Numbered from the stretch's first letter, positions 11,953-19,401 are shown. The stretch: 64,000 nt of DNA from a virus (IMGVR_UViG_3300031836_000002:60210-124209); one strand, 5' to 3'. Notes: a model not told the origin generated them from the sequence alone. Translations and numbers: made by a program.

Positions 11953-12004
11953 AGCGACCCAAAGCGCCCCCACCGGGCCGCGTGGTCAGTCTATACGACT
12001 ACTG

Positions 12005-12078
12005 TCCCTCAGGGTGGACTCGAACCACCGCGTCACCTTGTTATGAGCAAGGGGCCTTACCAGCTTGGCTACCGAGGG
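12005..12078 (-). tRNA. tRNA-Met(CAT) (or Ile2)
   Basis: Cloverleaf; CCTTG-CTCATAA-CAAGG. Confidence 0.9.
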
Positions 12079-12198
12079 AAGTGAGGGAGGCTCGCACCCG
12101 TCGATGCGAGCGTCACCCTCGTGCTCGTTTCACTGCCTCGATGAGCTTCGAGTGAGGGACCTTCTCCCTCAGGCAGTCGTGCCCGCAATTCTTCTTTG

Positions 12199-12272
12199 TG
12201 GATCCACAGGGACTCGAACCCTGAACCATGTGCTTGCAAAGCACGCGCTCTACCAGTTGGAGCTATAGACCC
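12199..12272 (-). tRNA. tRNA-Ala(TGC)
   Basis: Cloverleaf; loop TTTGCAA; G3:U70. Confidence 0.92.
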
Positions 12273-12283
12273 TCGATCATGCG

Positions 12284-12357
12284 TAGCCTCAACAGGATTT
12301 GAACCTGTGACTTCCTCCTTATCAGGGAGACGCTCTACCAGACTGAGCTATGAAGCT
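12284..12357 (-). tRNA. tRNA-Ile(GAT)
   Basis: Cloverleaf; loop CTGATAA. Confidence 0.92.
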
Positions 12358-12385
12358 TTGTCGCGGATCCGCCGCGCCGGTATTG

Positions 12386-12457
12386 TCCCCTCGACTGGAT
12401 TCGAACCAGTGGCCAAGAGATTAGAAGGCTCCTGCTCTTCCTCTGAGCTACGAAGGG
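12386..12457 (-). tRNA. tRNA-Arg(TCT)
   Basis: Cloverleaf; loop CTTCTAA. Confidence 0.9.
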
Positions 12458-12460
12458 AAG

Positions 12461-12534
12461 TGGAGACGGAACCCGGAATCTAACCGGGGTAAGAAGCTTT
12501 GCAGGCCCCTGCCTAGACTCTCGGCCATTCCGCC
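12461..12534 (-). tRNA. tRNA-Cys(GCA)
   Basis: Loop CTGCAAA, U73, CCA encoded; T-loop TTAGATT. Confidence 0.88.
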
Positions 12535-12544
12535 AAATTCTTGT

Positions 12545-12838
12545 TTAGGTCTCATCCTCTGGACGTTCCTCGAATGTGATAGCCACATCCTTTCCCAGCA
12601 TAGAGTCGAACCAAGCGGCTGCTTCAGGGTTCCCTACGGTGAGTTTGACCTCTCCCGATGGGGTGGCGGATGACCACGCCTCGTTCTGAGGCCCTTTAGC
12701 TCCTGATACAGGAGACATGACTACTTCGATGCGGGGGGCTGGATTCGCCCAACCACTAGCGTGAGCCTGAGAGACCGATGCAGCGAAACGCTTGACTTCA
12801 CGGACGTAGAAACGGGCGGTGACTTTGGATATGGACAT
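12545..12838 (-). CDS. conserved hypothetical protein
   Basis: GAGGAGG RBS before ATG 12838; NEAWSSATPSG.V.L.V.NP motif. Confidence 0.75.
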   Translation of the reverse strand: MSISKVTARFYVREVKRFAASVSQAHASGWANPAPRIEVVMSPVSGAKGPQNEAWSSATPSGEVKLTVGNPEAAAWFDSMLGKDVAITFEERPEDET

Positions 12839-12940
12839 AGTTGCCTCCTCGGCAATAGTTGAATTGAACTTGAGGAGGTCTGCGAACCAGATTTGAGCCT
12901 GCGTCCGAACCTGTGCCCAGTGTAGCTCATTTCTTCTTTG

Positions 12941-13012
12941 TAGGCCTTGAGGATTCTGCCACCTCGACCCTCCGCTTAAAAGGCGGATGCTCTGCTTCTG
13001 AGCTAAAGGCCC
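12941..13012 (-). tRNA. tRNA-Lys(TTT)
   Basis: TCCGC-CTTTTAA-GCGGA; atypical T-loop. Confidence 0.85.
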
Positions 13013-13017
13013 TAGCG

Positions 13018-13089
13018 CTCCGGGGGCTGGGGTCGAACCAACGCCACCTGATTCCAAAGATCAGCGTGCTGCCATTACACCACCCCGGA
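13018..13089 (-). tRNA. tRNA-Gln(TTG)
   Basis: Cloverleaf; loop CTTTGGA. Confidence 0.9.
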
Positions 13090-13163
13090 TTGAAGAGTCC
13101 ACTACCTGTTAGGCCGGTCTTGGATAGGGCTAGCCAGCCGTGTGCGCTGCCCGTGGACTCTAG

Positions 13164-13234
13164 CTCCCCACCAAGGATTCGAACCTCGACAAACTGGCTC
13201 AGAACCAGTTGTGCTGCCGTTACACCAGCGGGGA
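13164..13234 (-). tRNA. tRNA-Gln(CTG)
   Basis: Cloverleaf; loop TTCTGAG. Confidence 0.9.
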
Positions 13235-13307
13235 ATATAGCAAGACGTGAGTATTAGTACCGACCGTCTTCGCAGGGATGATTGATGTTTGTCCCCACGT
13301 CTTACCG

Positions 13308-13379
13308 TGCCCTTCGAGGGATTCGAACCCCCAACATACGGTTCCGAAGACCGGCGCTCTTCCGTTGAGCTAGAAAGGC
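13308..13379 (-). tRNA. tRNA-Arg(TCG)
   Basis: Cloverleaf; loop CTTCGGA. Confidence 0.9.
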
Positions 13380-13433
13380 AGACCCGGCGCTGATCCAACA
13401 GCACTCCTGAATCGAACAGTCCGTTCCGGGGTT

Positions 13434-13496
13434 GTTAGCGCTCTGCCATTGAGCTACCGATCAAATCGGCTGGGACTCGAACCCAGATACTCTAAC
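13434..13496 (-). ncRNA. circularly permuted tRNA-like RNA (YrlA/Y-RNA-like topology)
   Basis: Order GTTAG, variable region, T arm, closed acceptor hairpin, TA, D arm, G, CTAAC. Confidence 0.75.
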
Positions 13497-13498
13497 CG

Positions 13499-13570
13499 TG
13501 CCCTTCGAGGGATTCGAACCCCCGGCCCTCTCATCCGTAGTGAGATGCTCTTCCGCTGAGCTAGAAAGGC
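13499..13570 (-). tRNA. tRNA-Arg(ACG)
   Basis: Cloverleaf; loop CTACGGA. Confidence 0.92.
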
Positions 13571-13652
13571 ATGTGATGTGCCCGCCAATTACCTCAGGCA
13601 CATCGTCGTCAATTTTTCCTCCACTCCGAGTAAAATTGAAAAACCCTCGTCG

Positions 13653-13720
13653 TAACGTTGGCTGGATTCGAACCAGCGACCACCTCATGAGGAAGCTCTG
13701 CCTACCTGAGCTACAACGTC
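13653..13720 (-). ncRNA. tRNA-like RNA with truncated anticodon arm (CAT)
   Basis: Intact acceptor, D and T arms; only 17 nt between the D and T arms. Confidence 0.7.
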
Positions 13721-13819
13721 TATCCCGTGGGGCAATTACTCCCACTCGTCCAGCTTCTGAAGCCTTTGGATCCCCACGTCATGGCCATGCCGCGGTTCCT
13801 CTCCAGCTCCGTCTACTCG

Positions 13820-13891
13820 CTCCCCATCTTGGATTCGAACCAAGGACCAATCGGTTAACAGCCGAACGCTCTGCCTCTGAGCTAACAGGGA
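13820..13891 (-). tRNA. tRNA-Asn(GTT)
   Basis: Cloverleaf; loop CTGTTAA. Confidence 0.92.
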
Positions 13892-14128
13892 TTACGTGAG
13901 ATGGAAGCTGTCCTGCGTACTCAGGACCTTAGTGCTTCGTCGTTTCACCTATGGGGAGTACGACATTCCCCACCGGTAGGACACCCACTTGCCCTTTGTC
14001 TTCTCCAGAGCTTCGAGACACTGAAGAGGTGATCCGGAGATTTACGCACTCCGACAGTGACCTCATTACAGAGGATCGCGTGCCAGCTTTTCATTTTTGA
14101 AAGGTCTTGAGGCTGGATCCGTTGACCT
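13892..14128 (-). ncRNA. putative structured ncRNA (~235 nt)
   Basis: No ORF; multiple hairpins and complementary loops. Confidence 0.5.
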
Positions 14129-14130
14129 TG

Positions 14131-14202
14131 TGCTTCTCAGAGGACTCGAACCTCTGACCGGTGCCGTGTAAAGACATTGCTCTGCCGCTGAGCTAGAGAA
14201 GC
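14131..14202 (-). tRNA. tRNA-Val(TAC)
   Basis: Cloverleaf; loop TTTACAC. Confidence 0.9.
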
Positions 14203-14203
14203 A

Positions 14204-15067
14204 TTAGGCAGGAGAGAGTTTCTCCGCCGCCGCACGGTACCGATCTAGAATGTCTGTCTTCTGGATGTGGTCCCGTTGCGGGTAGAACGTGTAATGACTG
14301 ACCAGCGCGTTCCCGGCGATGGCAGTAGGCCGGTTCAGTCGCGTTGGCATCTCGATGGAGTGCCACGCCTCATCGTCAGTGTGTTCGATGTAGCCGGGAG
14401 GAGTGCAGTGGTTGTGATACTCCTCGGAGAGGCTGGCGAAACAGCTCACGCTAAACTGCTGCCCTAGTGGGAGCTGCACGTCGTGATAAAGAAACAGCTT
14501 GCTGACTGTTCCGGCTTCCACATGGTCTAGGAGAAGGTTGTGCATCTTTTCCGCGAATGGTCCGTCTGCCCAGCCAATTGGGTCCATGCAGTACGGCTGC
14601 ACTTCTCCCCACTCGCGGGGCACACAACCTTGCATCTGGAGGTACCACGTGGATATAGCGTTGTTCCAGATGATGGGGAAGGTCACGAAGGCTGAGCTGG
14701 AGAGCTTCGACTTCACCAAAGTAGCAAGGGCGTCCTCGTGGATGTAAACGATGTCGTCATCAAATCGGACGTAAACCGTGTTCGGCTCCACACAGTTCTC
14801 GAAGAAAACTCTTGTGTTGTACTGCTTCTTGTGGTTGAGATTCCGGGTGGCTGGCGCGTACTTCTGTGTGATCCAGTCATGCTCAGCTGCCAGCTTGTCG
14901 GCGTAGGAGACATCCGAGACCTGATCCGGGTCGGTGTTCATCCAAAGCTGCCACTCATCCAAGACTCCTCTTTCGTGGTCCCTTTGGAGGTAAGAGAAAA
15001 GGATGGATGCAGTCGCCACCCTGCCGTATGGTGTGCAAGCAACTACCCGGCTTTCCAGAACTGTCAT
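14204..15067 (-). CDS. GT-A-like glycosyltransferase
   Basis: TPYGR N-terminus, YVRFDDDIVYI DxD motif; start 15067 (leaderless) or 15139. Confidence 0.65.
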   Translation of the reverse strand: MTVLESRVVACTPYGRVATASILFSYLQRDHERGVLDEWQLWMNTDPDQVSDVSYADKLAAEHDWITQKYAPATRNLNHKKQYNTRVFFENCVEPNTVYVRFDDDIVYIHEDALATLVKSKLSSSAFVTFPIIWNNAISTWYLQMQGCVPREWGEVQPYCMDPIGWADGPFAEKMHNLLLDHVEAGTVSKLFLYHDVQLPLGQQFSVSCFASLSEEYHNHCTPPGYIEHTDDEAWHSIEMPTRLNRPTAIAGNALVSHYTFYPQRDHIQKTDILDRYRAAAEKLSPA

Positions 15068-15197
15068 GGGACCAACAGTAGCAAACTCTGGAATCTCATA
15101 CCCGTGGTTTTGGAGGCCCTTTGCGCTGTCGGAGGGCAAGTCCGTCTCATTCCTGAGAGATCTCTCTTTTCCTGTTGGACTGTTCGAGATAACATCG

Positions 15198-15272
15198 GGC
15201 CTCTGGAGGGATTCGAACCCCCGACCGTCGCTTTACAAGAGCGTTGCTCTGGCCAAACTGAGCTACAAAGGC
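15198..15272 (-). tRNA. tRNA-Thr(TGT)
   Basis: Cloverleaf; loop CTTGTAA. Confidence 0.9.
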
Positions 15273-15275
15273 ATG

Positions 15276-15544
15276 TGCTGAGGAGATCGTGAGATATCGT
15301 GCGCTCAGCTCGCTCTGGCCTTTCGGTATCCAGACCCATGCCACAGCGGGCGAAGGAAAGTCCACCCCCTGCAACTCCGACAAGTTGTTCGGTCAGGGGG
15401 CTTCACATCTGCGCTGCCTACGAGAGGCTGCGAGAAAAAGTGCACCGGATGCCCTTGCAAAGGCGCTCCTTCCGAGGGAGCCAGACGGACTCAAGTTGTT
15501 CGTGATGTCTGAGCCGAACGCTGGTGACTAACTGCGTCCTTCCG
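15276..15544 (-). ncRNA. putative structured ncRNA (~270 nt)
   Basis: Many stems with G-U pairs favouring the minus strand, GAAA tetraloop, internal repeats. Confidence 0.5.
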
Positions 15545-15615
15545 AGGAGTACGCGGGGATCGAACCCGCGATGTCTGTTTGGAAGACAGACGTGTTACCG
15601 CTACACCAGTACTCC
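15545..15615 (-). tRNA. tRNA-Gly(TCC)
   Basis: Cloverleaf; loop CTTCCAA; U73. Confidence 0.92.
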
Positions 15616-15701
15616 GTGAGCGCATTTAGCGGGTGCGCCTGACCATCCCGAAGAGAGGATACAGCCTCTCAATCCCAGCTCCCTGTATGAGGCTGGATCT
15701 G

Positions 15702-15773
15702 TGGGCCTGCGTGGAGTCGAACCACGTTCTCTTGATTAAGAGTCGAGAGCATCACCACTAATGCTTCAAGCCC
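15702..15773 (-). tRNA. tRNA-Lys(CTT)
   Basis: Cloverleaf; loop CTCTTAA. Confidence 0.88.
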
Positions 15774-16108
15774 CGATATTTTGCTATGTTCTCCGGTAAC
15801 TGCATCCTCTCGAATGTTCTAATTCGATGACAGGTACCACAAACTACGTCACATTTTGCAATCTCAGCCATGATCCGGTTTATGGACTTACCCATGAGAG
15901 CTGCCACTGTAGTAGCGGGATCGCTATCACGGTTCACCCTGTGGTCAAACTCTAATCCGGCGTGATGGGCTGAGTACCTGCAATCCGCACACCCCTGAGA
16001 CACCTTGTACTCCCGAACCACCATGACGTTCTTTTGATACCGGCCTCGCATGTACGCTGCCATGTAATCTCGGTACTCTTGGGAGCTTTTATCTCTGGGT
16101 CTACTCAT
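15758..16108 (-). CDS. HNH endonuclease
   Basis: CADC, LEFDH, KCDVVCGTCHRIRT motifs; stop codon lies inside tRNA-Lys(CTT). Confidence 0.9.
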   Translation of the reverse strand: MSRPRDKSSQEYRDYMAAYMRGRYQKNVMVVREYKVSQGCADCRYSAHHAGLEFDHRVNRDSDPATTVAALMGKSINRIMAEIAKCDVVCGTCHRIRTFERMQLPENIAKYRGLKH

Positions 16109-16131
16109 GCAGTAAGAATACCTTATCTAAC

Positions 16132-16220
16132 TTGGCGGAGAACTGAGGGCATGATCCCCTCACCTTGCGGTGCCAACCGATTAGCAATCGGTGCCGGTGC
16201 GCCTGCCCGGTAAGCTCTCC
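16132..16220 (-). tRNA. tRNA-Ser(GCT), atypical
   Basis: Loop TTGCTAA, long variable arm, G73-CCA; odd T-loop and bulged acceptor. Confidence 0.8.
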
Positions 16221-16221
16221 A

Positions 16222-16314
16222 TGGCGGATGAAGTAGGTCTCGAACCCACACGGGTATTACCCCCAACTGTTTTCAAGACAGCGCCCGATAGGCCGAAGCT
16301 CGGGTTATTCATCC
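16222..16314 (-). tRNA. tRNA-Ser(TGA)
   Basis: Loop CTTGAAA, long variable arm, G73-CCA. Confidence 0.88.
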
Positions 16315-16338
16315 TTGTGTTTTTCTCTGTGGAATTAG

Positions 16339-16366
16339 AAAAGCCCCAGACTGTTAGGTCTAGGGC
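16339..16366 (-). terminator. attenuator terminator 2
   Basis: GCCCTAGAC-CTAACA-GTCTGGGGC hairpin plus TTTTCT. Confidence 0.85.
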
Positions 16367-16396
16367 CGCATTAGCGAGATTCGAAAATCTGCTGAG

Positions 16397-16471
16397 TTAG
16401 GACAGCCCTGAAGTACTGCGATTGGCCACAATGGCCGATCCCATTACTTGCTTGGACTGGTTTTTTCTCAT
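16397..16471 (-). CDS. leader peptide 2 MRKNQSKQVMGSAIVANRSTSGLS (leaderless uORF)
   Basis: ATG 6 nt after TAGGGT; codons match downstream tRNAs; 3' end is complementary to the terminator stem. Confidence 0.8.
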   Translation of the reverse strand: MRKNQSKQVMGSAIVANRSTSGLS

Positions 16472-16477
16472 GCGTTG

Positions 16478-16507
16478 ACCCTACTACTACTTTCAATCGA
16501 GACGCAA
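16478..16507 (-). promoter_or_regulatory. sigmaA-type promoter of tRNA block 2
   Basis: TTGCGT-N18-TAGGGT. Confidence 0.7.
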
Positions 16508-16532
16508 GTGCATCCCGAAATTCTTCTTTGAT

Positions 16533-16668
16533 TGGACGATGCAGACGATTCGAACGCCACTTCCAACACTCTAGGCTGGCGAGCTGCCGCTGATGCTCTC
16601 CGGGATACGAACGCGCGCTCGACATCCTCCGGTGCTGTCTTTGGTCTACCTGATTACTCCATACATCG
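16533..16668 (-). ncRNA. expanded tRNA-like RNA with encoded CCA
   Basis: 7-bp acceptor CGATGTA/TGCATCG-T-CCA, D, anticodon-like and T arms, ~63-nt insert before the D arm. Confidence 0.7.
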
Positions 16669-16670
16669 AG

Positions 16671-16755
16671 TGCTCATCCCCGGACTTGAACCGGGACGAG
16701 GGTTACCCCTCACAGCCACCTCAAGGCTGCGTGTCTGCCATTTCACCAGACGAGC
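16671..16755 (-). tRNA. tRNA-Leu(GAG)
   Basis: Loop TTGAGGT; long variable arm. Confidence 0.92.
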
Positions 16756-16825
16756 TTATGCTGGGGTAGGTGGTCCATTCCTACCCCTGAGGTGGCATGC
16801 CCTTGGAGGAGCACTGCCACCTTTG

Positions 16826-16899
16826 TGTCTCTCCTCGGATTCGAACCGAGAACCTTTGGATCCTAAATCCAACGCCTCTACCAGTTGGGCTAGAAAGAC
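16826..16899 (-). tRNA. tRNA-Leu(TAG), short variable region
   Basis: Loop TTTAGGA; 5-nt variable region. Confidence 0.88.
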
Positions 16900-16921
16900 A
16901 TGTGGATTGATCGAGCTTCAG

Positions 16922-17029
16922 AAGGCCGGGAGGATTCGAACCTACACACCAGCGCGTTTCCCCTCGGGCTACCAAGGGTACTAAACGCCGCCTCTGCCAC
17001 TTCAGCTTTTTAATAGTGCGAACCAACCT
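16922..17029 (-). ncRNA. expanded tRNA-like RNA
   Basis: Acceptor AGGTTGG/CCGGCCT, GGTTCGAATCC T arm, D-like arm, elongated anticodon-position arm. Confidence 0.6.
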
Positions 17030-17071
17030 ACGTCCGCTCGATCAATCCCGATGAGTAGCTATCTCATCTTG

Positions 17072-17144
17072 TGCCCACCGAGAGGATCGAACTCTCAGCC
17101 TTCCCGGCTTCAACGGGACGCTCTTCCACATGAGCTTGGAGGGC
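17072..17144 (-). tRNA. tRNA-Phe(GAA)
   Basis: Cloverleaf; loop TTGAAGC. Confidence 0.9.
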
Positions 17145-17219
17145 ATATAGCACACCGACATGGAACGCCTCCTCTGACTCAGCGTATATACCGGTGTGCT
17201 AGAACGTCAAAGACGTTCG

Positions 17220-17302
17220 TGACAGGAGAGGGATTTGAACCCCCACAGTCGAAGACCACTGGGTTACAACCAGCTACCCTGCGCCAATAGGTGAGTCCTG
17301 CC
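17220..17302 (-). tRNA. tRNA-Tyr(GTA)
   Basis: Loop TTGTAAC; long variable arm. Confidence 0.88.
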
Positions 17303-17354
17303 TTGGTGCGGACACTTACGCGGCCCGCTTACGACCATATTTGGATGGCTTCCG

Positions 17355-17426
17355 TAGCGCGCACGGGATTCGAACCCGCACCGTAGAACCTGAAAAGCTC
17401 CAGAACTGCCGTTATTCTAACGCGCC
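17355..17426 (-). tRNA. tRNA-Glu(TTC)
   Basis: Cloverleaf; loop TTTTCAG. Confidence 0.88.
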
Positions 17427-17494
17427 ATAGGTAGAGACCGCCAATAACGCGGCTGGAAGGCCTGACACCCTTCTCACTCACCCTCTACCTGCCG

Positions 17495-17568
17495 TGACCT
17501 GCACGGGACTTGAACCCGTAACCTCCAGCTTGAGAAGCTGATGCAACTGCCAATTGTGCTAGCAGGCC
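17495..17568 (-). tRNA. tRNA-Glu(CTC)
   Basis: Cloverleaf; loop TTCTCAA. Confidence 0.9.
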
Positions 17569-17707
17569 ATATTGGAAGTTTCTGTGGTGCATCCTCGATG
17601 GGACCCTTGTGGGGGCTACCCCCTTCGCTGGTTTAGCGGCCAGCTACTCGGCACGTCCACTCCCTCAACTATTTTCTCCCATGCACTGGGACTGGATAGC
17701 TCCATAG

Positions 17708-17780
17708 CGGCCCTAGTCGGATTTGAACCGGCAACCTTCGCGCAGACAACGCACTGCTCTACCAATTGAGCTATAGGGTC
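17708..17780 (-). tRNA. tRNA-Asp(GTC)
   Basis: Loop TTGTCTG; G73. Confidence 0.85.
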
Positions 17781-17857
17781 AAAGCCAGTTTCTTCTTGCC
17801 ATGGAGTCTGGCATCCACGCCGTCCTTTTCTGATTGTGCCTCAGCGGTATCGGAAGT

Positions 17858-17934
17858 TGGGGTGAACAACGGGGATCGAACCCGCGACATCCGGCTCCAC
17901 AAGCCAGCGCTCTGCCTACTGAGCTATGCCCACC
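17858..17934 (-). tRNA. tRNA-His(GTG)
   Basis: G-1:C73, loop TTGTGGA, CCA encoded. Confidence 0.93.
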
Positions 17935-17983
17935 ATGTGACAGGACCACAAGGATCCTGTCTGTTCTCATTTCTGAAAACTTG

Positions 17984-18057
17984 TACGGATAGCAGGATTC
18001 GAACCTGCGATCTCTTGGTCCCAAACCAAGCGCCTTACCAAGCTGGGCTATACCCGT
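17984..18057 (-). tRNA. tRNA-Pro(TGG)
   Basis: Cloverleaf; loop TTTGGGA. Confidence 0.92.
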
Positions 18058-18096
18058 ATGTTGTTGCATTCACTGTGTAATTATCAAGGTGCAATG

Positions 18097-18127
18097 AAAA
18101 AACCTCCTTGCCCGGTGGCTAGGAGGT
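18097..18127 (-). terminator. attenuator terminator 1
   Basis: ACCTCCT-A-GCC-ACCG-GGC-A-AGGAGGT plus TTTTT. Confidence 0.88.
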
Positions 18128-18153
18128 CTGCTGCGTTTGAGCGCGTGCTACCT

Positions 18154-18198
18154 CTAGCCGAAGTAATCTTCCGGCAGGAGGTGTGAGAACGTGTTCAT
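18154..18198 (-). CDS. leader peptide 1 MNTFSHLLPEDYFG (leaderless uORF)
   Basis: ATG 7 nt after TAAGGT; codons match downstream tRNAs; stop region is complementary to the terminator stem. Confidence 0.85.
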   Translation of the reverse strand: MNTFSHLLPEDYFG

Positions 18199-18205
18199 GT
18201 AACAG

Positions 18206-18235
18206 ACCTTAGTTGCGTGAGCTGACGGTTGTCAA
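18206..18235 (-). promoter_or_regulatory. sigmaA-type promoter of tRNA block 1
   Basis: TTGACA-N18-TAAGGT. Confidence 0.8.
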
Positions 18236-18253
18236 CTCCATTTTCAGGTTTCG

Positions 18254-18327
18254 TTGCGGAGGTGGGATTTGAACCCACGACCTCTAGGATATGAGCCTAG
18301 CGAGCTGCCTAACTGCTCTACTCCGCG
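18254..18327 (-). tRNA. tRNA-fMet-like (CAT)
   Basis: C1:A72 mismatch; loop CTCATAT; only two terminal G-C pairs in the anticodon stem. Confidence 0.85.
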
Positions 18328-18362
18328 TCGTACTATAAGGATTGCATGTGCAATCTAATTTG

Positions 18363-18833
18363 TCAAGAGTTGATGAGTTCGAGGTAGTCGAACTTGGTTC
18401 CTAGGCAATCGTGGATCGTGACACCTAGGCCCTGAAGCTCGACTACGTTTCCGTTGTAGACGAATGCGTATTCCGGGATGGCTCCGACACCAAGGACGAA
18501 GCGGTTTCCCTCCTCAGTGAGCTTCCAGAAGCCTGCACGGCCTCCGTCTGGTCTCACGCTGTAGTTCTCTTCTTCGATCAGTCCCCACCAGCTGGCTTGG
18601 GAGATCTCGTGAGTGTCTCCGGGAAGCGAGGGGGTGTGCTGATAGTCCTCAGACCCTCCTGCGTGATGCAGCTGGATCAAGGCCTTGGCAATGGTGGCAT
18701 GTAGCTTGCGCCGGTACACCTTGGCGTTCTGTCCACAGCAAGGGCACTTGGCTCCTTCTGACACGTTAGTGAGGAGCCACTCCTTCGCCATCAAGAGGGT
18801 GGTATGTGCCCCCGTAACCATTCTTTTCAGCAT
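18363..18833 (-). CDS. hypothetical protein (CxxC, winged-helix-like)
   Basis: CPCCGQ and WGLIE...W.LTEEG motifs. Confidence 0.65.
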   Translation of the reverse strand: MLKRMVTGAHTTLLMAKEWLLTNVSEGAKCPCCGQNAKVYRRKLHATIAKALIQLHHAGGSEDYQHTPSLPGDTHEISQASWWGLIEEENYSVRPDGGRAGFWKLTEEGNRFVLGVGAIPEYAFVYNGNVVELQGLGVTIHDCLGTKFDYLELINS

Positions 18834-18864
18834 GCTGTTCCTTTTCGTTGACCTAACAAAATCG

Positions 18865-18984
18865 TACTGAAGACGGGATTCGAACCCGCATGCTACGTGT
18901 CGCGTTCACGTGCTTGCCTCTACACCTTGACCTCCGCCTCTAAAAGGCGTAGCCACACACTGCCAGCTTTTAAGTCACTCCAGT
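18865..18984 (-). ncRNA. expanded tRNA-like RNA
   Basis: Acceptor ACTGGAG/CTTCAGT, canonical T arm, ~88-nt structured core. Confidence 0.6.
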
Positions 18985-19073
18985 GGGGTGTTCTTCAGTT
19001 CCGGCCCATGTTTCAGCTTGCGCCCTTCCAGATCAACGGGGGACAGCTTCGGCAATGAGCTAATGCCTATGCG

Positions 19074-19147
19074 CGGGATGTGGTGGATTCGAACCACCGG
19101 CTTCGGTTTTGGAGACCAACGTGTTAGGCCACTAACACTAACTTCCC
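19074..19147 (-). tRNA. tRNA-Trp(CCA)
   Basis: Cloverleaf; loop CTCCAAA. Confidence 0.9.
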
Positions 19148-19148
19148 T

Positions 19149-19326
19149 TGGCGGCAGGACTCTCATTGAAGAGCTTCTCCTCTAGACTTCTTGCTCCATT
19201 TCCTAGGTTGGGAGCTGCCCATTTTCGAGGTTGGGGCTTCCGGGTGGATCCACATCTGGTCTAAGTTCTCGGTTCCGCGGAGGTCCGAAATTCTTCTACT
19301 GATCGTGGCCCGGTCAACACCTGCCG
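19149..19326 (-). ncRNA. CCA-ended structured RNA with twin hairpins
   Basis: Closing stem CGGCAGG/CCTGCCG-CCA; T-like hairpin; two hairpins with near-identical loops. Confidence 0.55.
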
Positions 19327-19401
19327 TAGCCCTCCTCGGATTCGAACCGAGACGTTACTGGTTTTTGAGACCAGCTCCTCTACCGATTGGGATAGAGAGC
19401 C
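19327..19401 (-). tRNA. tRNA-Leu(CAA), short variable region
   Basis: Loop CTCAAAA; 6-nt variable region. Confidence 0.88.

Follow-up and report, generated by a model that had tools for sequence, protein, structure and literature searches.

Candidate multivalent leader-peptide attenuators upstream of two tRNA gene blocks in a phage and its relatives

In a stretch of viral DNA of 64,000 nucleotides (IMGVR_UViG_3300031836_000002:60210-124209, hereafter the window), two blocks of tRNA genes are each probably gated by a multivalent ribosome-mediated (leader-peptide) transcription attenuator, a reading of the sequence to which we give a probability of about 0.75. The layout in two modules is real and conserved across related phages, and we observed in it the sequence elements, the alternative pairings and the match between each leader and its block. 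As judged by sequence and folding, the features of an attenuator that are present are a promoter with a short ORF, matched leader codons, an intrinsic terminator (in the window) and an antiterminator that excludes it. The phage probably makes a tRNA block when the codons of that block are read slowly.

Results

The array lies on the minus strand, as do all the features described below, and comprises 30 tRNA genes when ARAGORN, Rfam and low-threshold ARAGORN are combined. Block 1 (16670-18057) contains nine tRNAs, Pro-UGG, His-GUG, Asp-GUC, Glu-CUC, Glu-UUC, Tyr-GUA, Phe-GAA, Leu-UAG and Leu-GAG, just as a sequence-only reading of this DNA had listed them (18057-16670). Block 2 (12004-16314) contains 18 tRNAs: Ser-UGA, Ser-GCU, Lys-CUU, Gly, Thr, Val, Asn, an anticodon-UCA tRNA, Arg-ACG, Arg-UCG, two Gln, Lys-UUU, Cys, Arg-UCU, Ile, Ala and Met. 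Three protein genes are inserted in it, encoding an HNH endonuclease (15758-16108), a 311-aa glycosyltransferase-like protein (14204-15139) and an ORF at about 12545-12850. ARAGORN alone found 16 block-2 tRNAs; Lys-UUU (12941-13012) and Ser-UGA (16226-16314), both already present in the sequence-only reading, were added by Rfam and low-threshold ARAGORN. That reading had counted 17 tRNAs in block 2 and 26 altogether, having omitted the anticodon-UCA tRNA (13652-13720) and missed three tRNAs upstream of leader 1; with these three and the 18 of block 2 the total is therefore 30.

The three additional tRNAs, Leu-CAA (19326-19401), Trp (19073-19147) and Met (18253-18327), form with a 156-aa gene an upstream unit (18253-19401) that lies outside both attenuators. 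We found no matched leader for this unit. The two blocks had been described as having disjoint amino-acid sets, but with the upstream tRNAs counted, Leu and Met tRNAs are also found outside their blocks.

The same anatomy is found twice in the window and in the same order: a promoter, an ORF starting 6-7 nt past the -10 box, a terminator and a tRNA block. Both modules had been proposed in the sequence-only reading and both were confirmed. Promoter 1 (18206-18235) has a -35 box TTGACA (18235-18230), an 18-nt spacer and a -10 box TAAGGT (18211-18206). The ATG of leader 1, at 18198, is 7 nt downstream of the -10 box, a layout that corresponds to a leaderless mRNA; from this spacing and that of leader 2, transcription would start at the ATG. 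Leader ORF 1 (18154-18198) has 14 codons followed by TAG and encodes Met Asn Thr Phe Ser His Leu Leu Pro Glu Asp Tyr Phe Gly. All seven amino acids of block 1 are covered (Phe twice, His, Leu twice, Pro, Glu, Asp and Tyr), and nine of residues 4-13 belong to the block-1 set, as previously counted.

Segment 2 of attenuator 1 (18151-18159, GGCUAGAGG) includes the stop codon and has two possible partners, either segment 3, giving the antiterminator, or the interior of the ORF (18182-18170), giving hairpin 1:2. Its duplex has a predicted energy of -20.1 kcal/mol (z = -3.7 against shuffles). Segment 3 (18117-18126, CCUCCUAGCC), which pairs with segment 2, is the 5' arm of intrinsic terminator 1 (18095-18128), a stem-loop at 18128-18101 of -17.5 kcal/mol followed by a T run (18100-18095). 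From there to tRNA-Pro, which starts at 18057, the distance is 38 nt. The fold of the leader 1 RNA has z = -4.6, and none of 200 shuffles was as good.

In the second module, promoter 2 (16478-16507) consists of TTGCGT (16507-16502), an 18-nt spacer and TAGGGT (16483-16478), and the leader ATG at 16471 is 6 nt downstream of the -10 box. Leader ORF 2 (16397-16471) has 24 codons and a TAA stop. The earlier counts were right here as well: 23 of the 24 residues are in the block-2 set and 11 of its 12 amino acids are covered, Cys being absent. The sole residue outside the set is one Leu (CUG), located within the conserved segment 2, GGGCUGUC. Segments 1 and 2 of attenuator 2 (feature 16403-16459) lie at 16459-16454 and 16409-16403; their 1:2 hairpin spans the ORF and is present in the four alignable leaders, with six of the eight pairs of the outer stem common to all four sequences. 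Segment 3 (16368-16362) overlaps intrinsic terminator 2 (the two together 16335-16368), whose stem of 10 pairs (16367-16342, -17.0 kcal/mol) is followed by TTTTCT. For this leader RNA the fold has z = -4.7, again with none of 200 shuffles as good. Leader 2 also has a middle hairpin conserved in nucleotides and a conserved ACAG(A/T)G tail.

We then compared leaders and blocks codon by codon. Standard wobble lets block-1 tRNAs read nine of the 13 non-start codons in leader 1, and these are all nine of its in-set codons; in leader 2, the block-2 tRNAs, with Lys-UUU and Ser-UGA counted, can decode 16 of the 23 non-start codons. The match is incomplete under strict wobble, since GCC, TCC and ACT are outside the reach of the block's UGC, UGA and UGU tRNAs, and no codon in the leaders of the window is strictly cognate to the Glu-CUC, Thr, Arg-UCG, Cys or Ala tRNAs. 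It had been suggested that about 20 host tRNAs are sensed. This number is overstated: Cys and Trp are absent from every leader, non-start Met occurs only once, in leader 2 of the window, and the Leu-CAA/Trp/Met unit has no matched leader.

Short ORFs and hairpins abound, and the blocks and residue windows were chosen after seeing the data, which could favour a mere coincidence. We scanned 3714 short ORFs (10-30 codons, six frames) from seven related loci for at least nine of 10 consecutive residues in the block-1 set together with all seven amino acids. Nine ORFs were leader-1-like, seven of them being the leader-1 ORFs themselves, one per phage; the two look-alikes among the 3707 others give a background of about 5 in 10,000 per short ORF. 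Among random 13-mers with the protein composition of this phage, all seven amino acids occurred in 9 of 10,000, and 4 of 10,000 random 23-mers were as leader-2-like as the leader of the window. Given this background and the recurrence of the features at the same site in seven phages, we consider the probability of chance as negligible; the comparative data effectively refute it.

The comparison rests on syntenic arrays in six relatives: Magritte, a cultured Microbacterium phage whose DNA polymerase is 46% identical to that of the window, L005, L009, L010, L013 and L034. A neighbouring 385-aa protein is 47-60% identical across the group. The order common to the relatives is Leu-CAA, Trp, (Met), then Pro to Leu, then Ser, Lys, Gly, Thr, Val, Asn, Arg, Gln and others. 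When divergent tRNAs are taken into account, namely His-like genes in gaps of Magritte and L010, and Tyr in L005, L010 and L009, block 1 of each phage has all seven isotypes. Promoter 1 occupies the same position in the six relatives, with TTGACA or TTGCAA and/or an extended TG-n-TAAGGT, and the position of promoter 2 is conserved too.

Leader 1 precedes tRNA-Pro in all six relatives and leader 2 is present in five. The expectation that leader content tracks block content in homologous arrays was borne out in these phages. The leader-1 ORFs of all seven phages contain Phe, Tyr, Glu, His, Pro, Leu and Asp, in differing order, with an ungapped positional identity past residue 3 of only 0-7 of 11-13; leader 2 contains 10-11 block-2 amino acids in six of six phages (10 in the five relatives). 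Residues of the block-1 set make up 70 of 101 in leader 1 versus 12 of 130 in leader 2 (Fisher p = 4e-22, for lineages that are not independent). Indeed the seven lineages share ancestry and are therefore not seven independent inventions. In more distant relatives (about 40% identity), the tRNA blocks lie behind a promoter and a plain hairpin with no leader ORF; a phage tRNA array does not require the device.

It could be proposed that the terminated leader transcripts (about 100-130 nt) function as small RNAs in their own right, for instance in trans or as decoys, and that their ORF-like composition is secondary. Both leaders fold strongly (z about -4.6), the conserved hairpin and tail of leader 2 would fit such a role, and Sinorhizobium rnTrpL is described in PMC6614838 as an attenuator-derived small RNA acting in trans. 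We nevertheless regard this explanation as improbable. The leaders match no Rfam family, and leader 1 is barely alignable in nucleotides between phages yet keeps its amino-acid set, which points to selection on codons rather than on RNA sequence. A role in trans would moreover be compatible with attenuation.

As had been proposed, the 3' end of the leader pairs with the 5' arm of the terminator; this was found in 12 of 12 folded leaders, differing sequences compensating each other. Segment 2 includes or abuts the stop codon in every folded leader, and the complementarity of segments 2 and 3, whose sequences differ in each phage, exceeds that of dinucleotide shuffles throughout (mean z = -2.8). 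The 1:2 hairpin, which as an anti-antiterminator would enforce termination of an untranslated leader, is clearly seen for leader 2 of Magritte, L009 and L010 and for leader 1 of L005. For leader 1 of the window, of L013 and of L034, the hairpin is weak or loses to the 2:3 pairing.

None of the runs recorded as RNA contained this DNA. The switch was modelled, by computation only, by folding the 12 leaders with a ribosome mask. In such conditions, a stall at an early or middle codon leaves, in all 12 leaders, an antiterminator in which 5-16 nt of the terminator 5' arm (11-23 nt long) are sequestered. With the ribosome at the last three sense codons, the sequestered nucleotides fall to 0-5 in the eight leaders with simple-hairpin terminators; for leader 1 of Magritte, L009, L010 and L034, in which a longer composite stem was called, about half stays paired. 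In leader 1 of the window the drop, from 9 to 0-3 nt, occurs at codons 12-13. Segment 2 lies so near the last two or three in-set codons of leader 1 (Asp/Tyr/Phe in the window) that a ribosome stalled at them would cover it, so that under the classical model not every matched codon can signal. Folding also indicates that three leader-1 RNAs, those of the window, L013 and L034, can form the antiterminator with no ribosome present; in the untranslated state they would then read through, unlike the trp leader.

This last property would also suit terminators that are simple insulators or dampeners, ending the upstream unit and leaking a fixed fraction from the adjacent promoter, with ORFs that are not translated sensors. 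Terminators between tRNA sub-operons are ordinary. In addition, U tracts are poor in the leader-1 terminators of L009, L010 and L034 and in the leader-2 terminators of L034 and L013, and in the latter two phages a second promoter-like site overlaps the leader-2 terminator and would bypass it. However, the promoters lie just upstream of the terminators and not downstream, a wasteful arrangement unless read-through is regulated. Insulation also leaves unexplained why seven lineages keep an ORF that starts 6-7 nt past the -10 box and stops within segment 2, and why leader composition tracks the downstream block while residue order drifts. We consider it unlikely, although the least unlikely of the alternatives.

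Discussion

Under the attenuation model that we favour, transcription would begin at or beside the leader ATG, and a ribosome would translate the 14- or 24-codon leader as RNA polymerase advances. If every codon is decoded fast, the ribosome would reach the stop codon and, because this codon lies within segment 2, cover that segment; the terminator hairpin would then form and the transcript would end before the first tRNA. If an aminoacyl-tRNA is scarce, the ribosome would stall at an early or middle codon and leave segment 2 free to pair with the terminator 5' arm, allowing the polymerase to continue into the tRNA block. We infer the translation of the leader and the read-through switch itself from the sequence. 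Since each leader is written in the amino acids of its own block, slow decoding by the tRNA classes of a block would turn that block on, and a restored supply would shut it down, a negative feedback on tRNA supply.

The natural cause of scarcity may be the loss of host tRNAs during infection, tRNA-cleaving defences or amino-acid shortage. It is tempting to speculate that cleavage or shortage of host tRNAs through anticodon nucleases or toxins is the trigger, as the sequence-only reading had imagined. Such a design would react just as readily to amino-acid starvation or to the tRNA that the phage itself produces, and the signal is ambiguous because extra tRNA cannot relieve amino-acid starvation. 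The attenuators might thus work but report amino-acid supply, in a stringent-like response to starvation, rather than tRNA abundance, and so time or throttle tRNA output with host physiology. Known leader-peptide attenuators all respond to amino-acid supply (PMC11857589) and, since they sense aminoacyl-tRNA, cannot distinguish uncharged from missing tRNA. Extra tRNA is however of no help when the amino acid is lacking, and a match between a leader and its own block is sensible only if the product can correct the signal. We hold this version to be slightly less probable still than a small-RNA function.

The large tRNA sets of phages are seen as probable replacements for host tRNAs cleaved or depleted in infection (PMC10264068; PMC11464382); these studies deal with the tRNAs carried and with nuclease resistance, and report neither sensing nor feedback in the control of tRNA transcription. 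A survey published in 2026 on tRNA genes in phages (PMC13015707) makes no mention of an attenuator, leader, terminator or promoter, and our literature search found no published account of tRNA genes controlled by leader-peptide attenuation. The ilvBNC operon of Corynebacterium glutamicum is a precedent in the probable host group of the phage. Its multivalent leader has 15 residues and a start codon just one nucleotide away from where transcription begins (PMC11857589), and this geometry is that of the phage leaders, with the ATG at or near the presumed start.

Like the enterobacterial thr (Thr, Ile) and ilvGMEDA (Ile, Leu, Val) operons and C. glutamicum ilvBNC, the phage modules have a short, presumably translated leader rich in regulatory codons, an intrinsic terminator and an overlapping antiterminator that would be set by ribosome position. 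Those operons regulate biosynthetic enzymes through runs of 1-3 amino acids, whereas the phage attenuators would act on tRNA genes, with one or two codons each for seven and for 10-11 amino acids; the phage stop codon is also part of segment 2, and the system is found in a phage. In E. coli, pheM-pheST is a leader-peptide attenuation system of Phe-tRNA synthetase that senses Phe-tRNA. It acts, as the phage modules would, on the translation apparatus, but it concerns a single amino acid, a protein gene and a cell.

Neither leader matches a T-box riboswitch, whose hallmarks are a stem I with a specifier loop and a conserved T-box bulge in the antiterminator, or any other Rfam family at E <= 1. 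T-boxes couple tRNA status to terminator read-through via an antiterminator, as the phage modules would. The T-box, however, binds one uncharged tRNA through a specifier codon and the T-box loop, without translation, whereas the phage leaders are about 100-130 nt long and presumably coding.

The phage and its tRNA array

The window covers the right-hand 64 kb of the complete 124-kb genome of an uncultured phage with direct terminal repeats, and all its genes lie on the minus strand. Among them are genes for a family-A DNA polymerase, for DnaB-like and other helicases and for a UvsX/RecA-like recombinase, as well as tail genes. When public sequencing runs were searched with the tRNA-array stretch 16100-18400, nearly all the matching runs were brine metagenomes, and none was listed as RNA. 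Among cultured phages, Microbacterium phage Magritte (133 kb) is the closest relative, with a DNA polymerase showing 46.5% identity across 99% of its length; since Magritte infects Microbacterium foliorum, the host of the window phage is probably an actinobacterium.

Between 12004 and 19401, ARAGORN detected 28 tRNAs, every one of them on the minus strand. Two further minus-strand tRNAs were found with Rfam, at 12941-13012 and 16226-16314, and typed by low-threshold ARAGORN as Lys-UUU and Ser-UGA, respectively. The sequence-only reading had divided the array into two blocks, each preceded by a leader: block 1 (Pro, His, Asp, Glu x2, Tyr, Phe, Leu x2) and block 2, which starts with Ser. The leader regions are as it described, and its picture of the array has to be amended. 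Three tRNAs (Leu-CAA, Trp and Met) lie upstream of leader 1; in block 2, one tRNA has anticodon UCA and the tRNA genes are split up by a gene for an HNH endonuclease, a glycosyltransferase-like gene and a third ORF. The anticodon-UCA tRNA (69 nt, 13652-13720, minus strand), called SeC by ARAGORN and scored at 44 bits by the Rfam tRNA model, is located between tRNA-Asn and tRNA-Arg; it would read UGA and could be an opal suppressor. The ORFs of the window phage look normal under code 11.

Two leader modules precede the tRNA blocks

We re-read both leader regions in the sequence and found that the elements previously proposed (a promoter, a short ORF and an intrinsic terminator) had been described exactly. 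Leader 1 (minus strand) consists of TTGACA, 18 nt, TAAGGT, 7 nt and an ATG at 18198 which opens a 14-codon ORF, followed by a hairpin of -17.5 kcal/mol and a T run, ending 38 nt before tRNA-Pro. Leader 2, on the same strand, has TTGCGT, 18 nt, TAGGGT, 6 nt and an ATG at 16471 opening a 24-codon ORF, with its terminator at 16367-16342. The amino-acid counts reported for the two leaders, with all seven amino acids of block 1 present in leader 1 and 23 of the 24 leader-2 residues drawn from the block-2 set, were also correct on recount. Both leader RNAs fold much more stably than shuffled sequences (z = -4.6 and -4.7), and no Rfam family matches leader 1 or leader 2. A 30-codon ORF with two Trp codons (19255-19163) was considered as a third leader, for the upstream Leu-CAA, Trp and Met tRNAs, and rejected, having neither a terminator nor a counterpart in the relatives.

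Leader content matches block content in related phages

The Magritte array is syntenic with that of the window: Leu-CAA, Trp, two genes, Pro Asp Glu Glu Tyr Phe Leu Leu, genes, then Ser Ser Lys Gly Gly Thr Thr Val Asn Arg Arg Gln and others. Before its tRNA-Pro we observed TTGACA, 18 nt, TAACGT, 7 nt, an ATG at L003:11384 that opens a 15-codon ORF, and a G/C-rich terminator. Beyond the first three residues, this ORF has none of 11 aligned residues in common with leader 1 of the window, and its residues include Tyr, Phe, Glu, Glu, His, Leu, Asp, Leu and Pro, that is, the identical set of seven amino acids. Its Glu codons (GAA/GAG) and Leu codons (CTG/CTT) correspond one-to-one with the two Glu and two Leu tRNAs. 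Leader 2 of Magritte, before tRNA-Ser, has TTGCGA, 18 nt, TAGCGT, 7 nt and, from an ATG at L003:13141, a 23-codon ORF composed mostly of Ser, Arg, Gln, Lys, Thr, Gly, Ala, Asn, Val and Ile, then a terminator. The annotated 32-codon gene gp99 of Magritte (L003:13092-13190) lies on the opposite strand, antisense to the leader 2 promoter and to the ORF's first 50 nt, and is probably not a real gene.

Other relatives were gathered from viral and metagenome contigs with an alignment of a 385-aa neighbouring protein, and another, L005, came from a Logan assembly. Five of them, L005, L009, L010, L013 and L034, have their tRNAs in the same order as the window, and in all five a leader-1 ORF occupies the equivalent site and contains all seven amino acids, each time in a different order. 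The leader-2 ORF is present in L009, L010, L034 and L013; the stretch of L005 examined contains no block 2. A near-identity DNA search of cultured phages matched single tRNAs only, the leader-2 DNA pattern matched a single viral contig, L004, which carries no tRNAs, and single-protein searches of the viral collection with a 311-aa gene, a 156-aa gene and the DNA polymerase returned no usable relatives. The 156-aa protein (PHROG 2693) has many homologues, mostly in unrelated phages lacking a tRNA array, and the only useful one was L005.

Magritte and L010 at first looked devoid of tRNA-His, and L005, L009 and L010 of tRNA-Tyr; this proved to be a detection artefact. The Pro-Asp gaps contain divergent genes resembling tRNA-His(GUG), whose T loop is non-canonical (L003:11591-11691 in Magritte and L010:9432-9508); both were missed by ARAGORN and Rfam, and that of Magritte also by the GenBank annotation. 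Tyr-GUA genes were found in L005, L009 and L010 by relaxed search or alignment. With these genes located, block 1 contains all seven isotypes in 7/7 phages. A Val-GAC tRNA called by ARAGORN in L005, a potential match to a Val codon of its leader, had no Rfam support and was not counted. Thus the prediction that leader content should track block content in homologous arrays is borne out among phages sharing the block-1 isotypes, the set being kept and the order changed. In the more distant relatives L015, L016, L020, L022 and L024, whose block contents are different, the leader ORFs are absent.

Of the 3714 short ORFs in the seven loci, nine draw nine or more of ten consecutive residues from the block-1 set and contain all seven amino acids, and seven of these nine are the leader-1 ORFs. 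Random peptides with the protein composition of the window phage and of the leader lengths contain all seven amino acids in about 0.1-0.25% of cases; since the lineages share ancestry, the seven leaders are not independent draws. The block-1 set accounts for 69% of leader-1 residues and 9% of leader-2 residues, versus 34.5% in the proteins of the window phage. Because the order of the residues has turned over and the set has been kept, the pattern is the signature that would be expected if selection acted on codon content rather than on the peptide.

A predicted terminator/antiterminator switch

We folded nascent leaders up to the synthesis of the terminator 3' arm, masking the RNA covered by a ribosome with its A site at successive codons. 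With the ribosome at early or middle codons, a stable hairpin between segment 2 (the stop-codon region) and segment 3 (the terminator 5' arm) remains in 12/12 leaders, sequestering 5-16 nt of a 5' arm that is 11-23 nt long. In the eight leaders with simple-hairpin terminators, a ribosome at the last three sense codons reduces the sequestered length to 0-5 nt, so that the terminator can form. In the four called with a longer composite stem (leader 1 of Magritte, L009, L010 and L034), roughly half the arm is still paired. The alternative pairing suggested earlier between the 3' end of the ORF and the terminator 5' stem is therefore predicted, by masked folding and duplex energies, in each of the 12 leaders.

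The 2:3 pairs differ between phages in a compensating manner; for instance, in the window GGCUAGAGG pairs with CCUCCUAGCC, in Magritte a G run with a C run, and in L005 GGCUUAG with CUAAGCC. All of the duplexes score better in energy than dinucleotide shuffles (z between -1.2 and -5.0, mean -2.8). The seven leader-1 RNAs are too divergent to align, so RNAalifold was uninformative and per-sequence folding and duplex tests were used in its place. For leader 2 the alignment shows the 1:2 helix kept in 4/4 sequences and compensatory changes in the terminator. The lone out-of-set residue of leader 2, a Leu (CUG) near its end, falls within the nucleotide-conserved GGGCUGUC, which is a strand of both the 1:2 and the 2:3 helices. 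Some features weaken the case for such a switch: the final in-set codons of leader 1 lie too near segment 2 for classical signalling, the anti-antiterminator is weak in some leader-1 RNAs, U tracts are weak in some relatives, and a promoter-like site overlaps the leader-2 terminator in L013 and L034.

A possible controller of decoding capacity

The reasons for large phage tRNA sets have long been debated: codon compensation, replacement of degraded host tRNAs, and escape from tRNA-cleaving defences. The best reading of the leaders, as judged from their sequences, is that they are a pair of multivalent ribosome-mediated attenuators gating the tRNA blocks. Slow decoding of a block's own codon classes would open that block and fast decoding would close it. 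We consider it somewhat better than an even bet (probability of about 0.55) that the whole forms a closed-loop controller of decoding capacity, in which the leaders act as multiplexed test strips, each switching on the block that repairs the deficit, and the loss of host tRNAs, including loss to tRNA-cleaving defences, is compensated class by class. Such test strips would carry one or two codons per amino acid, and the two together would cover 17-18 amino acids. Candidate natural triggers would be the loss of host tRNAs, a defence that cleaves tRNAs, or a shortage of amino acids; tRNA loss and cleavage are supported as pressures on phages (PMC10264068, PMC11464382).

This attenuator geometry has been demonstrated for ilvBNC in the actinobacterium Corynebacterium glutamicum (PMC11857589). 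Like ilvBNC, the phage modules have a short leader that starts at the transcription start (which we infer here), multivalent codons and an overlapping terminator and antiterminator; unlike it, they belong to a phage, target tRNA genes and span 7 and 10-11 amino acids, each represented by one or two codons. The mechanism class is thus already known, and its use on tRNA genes and its breadth are new. Full-text literature searches turned up neither leader-peptide attenuation of tRNA genes nor regulated phage tRNA arrays, nor any account of how phage tRNA genes are controlled, and a 2026 survey of phage tRNA genes (PMC13015707) mentions no attenuators, leaders, terminators or promoters. If the reading is right, this would be the first case found of leader-peptide attenuation on tRNA genes, and with 7 and 10-11 amino acids it would far exceed the known attenuators, which sense at most three. 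The phage would gauge decoding speed and respond with matching tRNAs, each leader listing the amino acids of its block. The tRNA-replacement idea would become directly testable, since one member, Magritte, is in culture with its host. For annotation, gaps within such arrays would have to be treated as regulatory and not as empty, as gp99 lying over leader 2 of Magritte illustrates.

Other elements of the arrays

Full-length GOLLD RNAs (Rfam RF02032) lie inside block 1 in L005 (14266-14699, 233 bits) and L034 (11100-11541, 214 bits); none was found in the array of the window. Sub-threshold Rfam matches to YrlA (Y-RNA-like) occur inside the window array at 13440-13487 and 12331-12415 (minus strand; 34 and 23 bits, cut-off 69). 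Magritte encodes a Ro-like protein directly after its tRNA array, and the genome of the window phage has no gene of the TROVE-domain (Ro) family.

A conserved hairpin, its stems co-varying and its tail rich in U, lies immediately upstream of tRNA-Leu-CAA at L005:12470-12542, L013:13175-13242 and L034:9255-9323. Its loop is CUCCUUUCU(N)GUUGGUAGCU in L005 and L034, with one additional U in L013; the exact loop motif is absent from the window. The first nine loop bases resemble the 3' end of 16S rRNA (anti-Shine-Dalgarno region).

The gap separating each terminator from its block's first tRNA holds a short, conserved (C/A)ACAG(A/T)G motif, in the window (16329-16322 and 18079-18072), in Magritte (L003:13283-13290) and in L009, L010 and L034; it also occurs 3' of the upstream promoter in L005, L013 and L034. 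It is a possible processing site.

tRNA-like fragments with T-arm-like GGTTCGAATC motifs, called as tRNA by no tool, are present in the window at 16530-16650 and 18870-18950 (minus strand) and are probably decayed tRNA genes. Finally, the HNH endonuclease of block 2 lies at 15758-16108, and in L009 an ORF with a LAGLIDADG-type motif (homing-endonuclease-like, 16120-16470) is inserted in block 1 beside the divergent tRNA-Tyr; mobile nucleases seem to have colonised such tRNA arrays.
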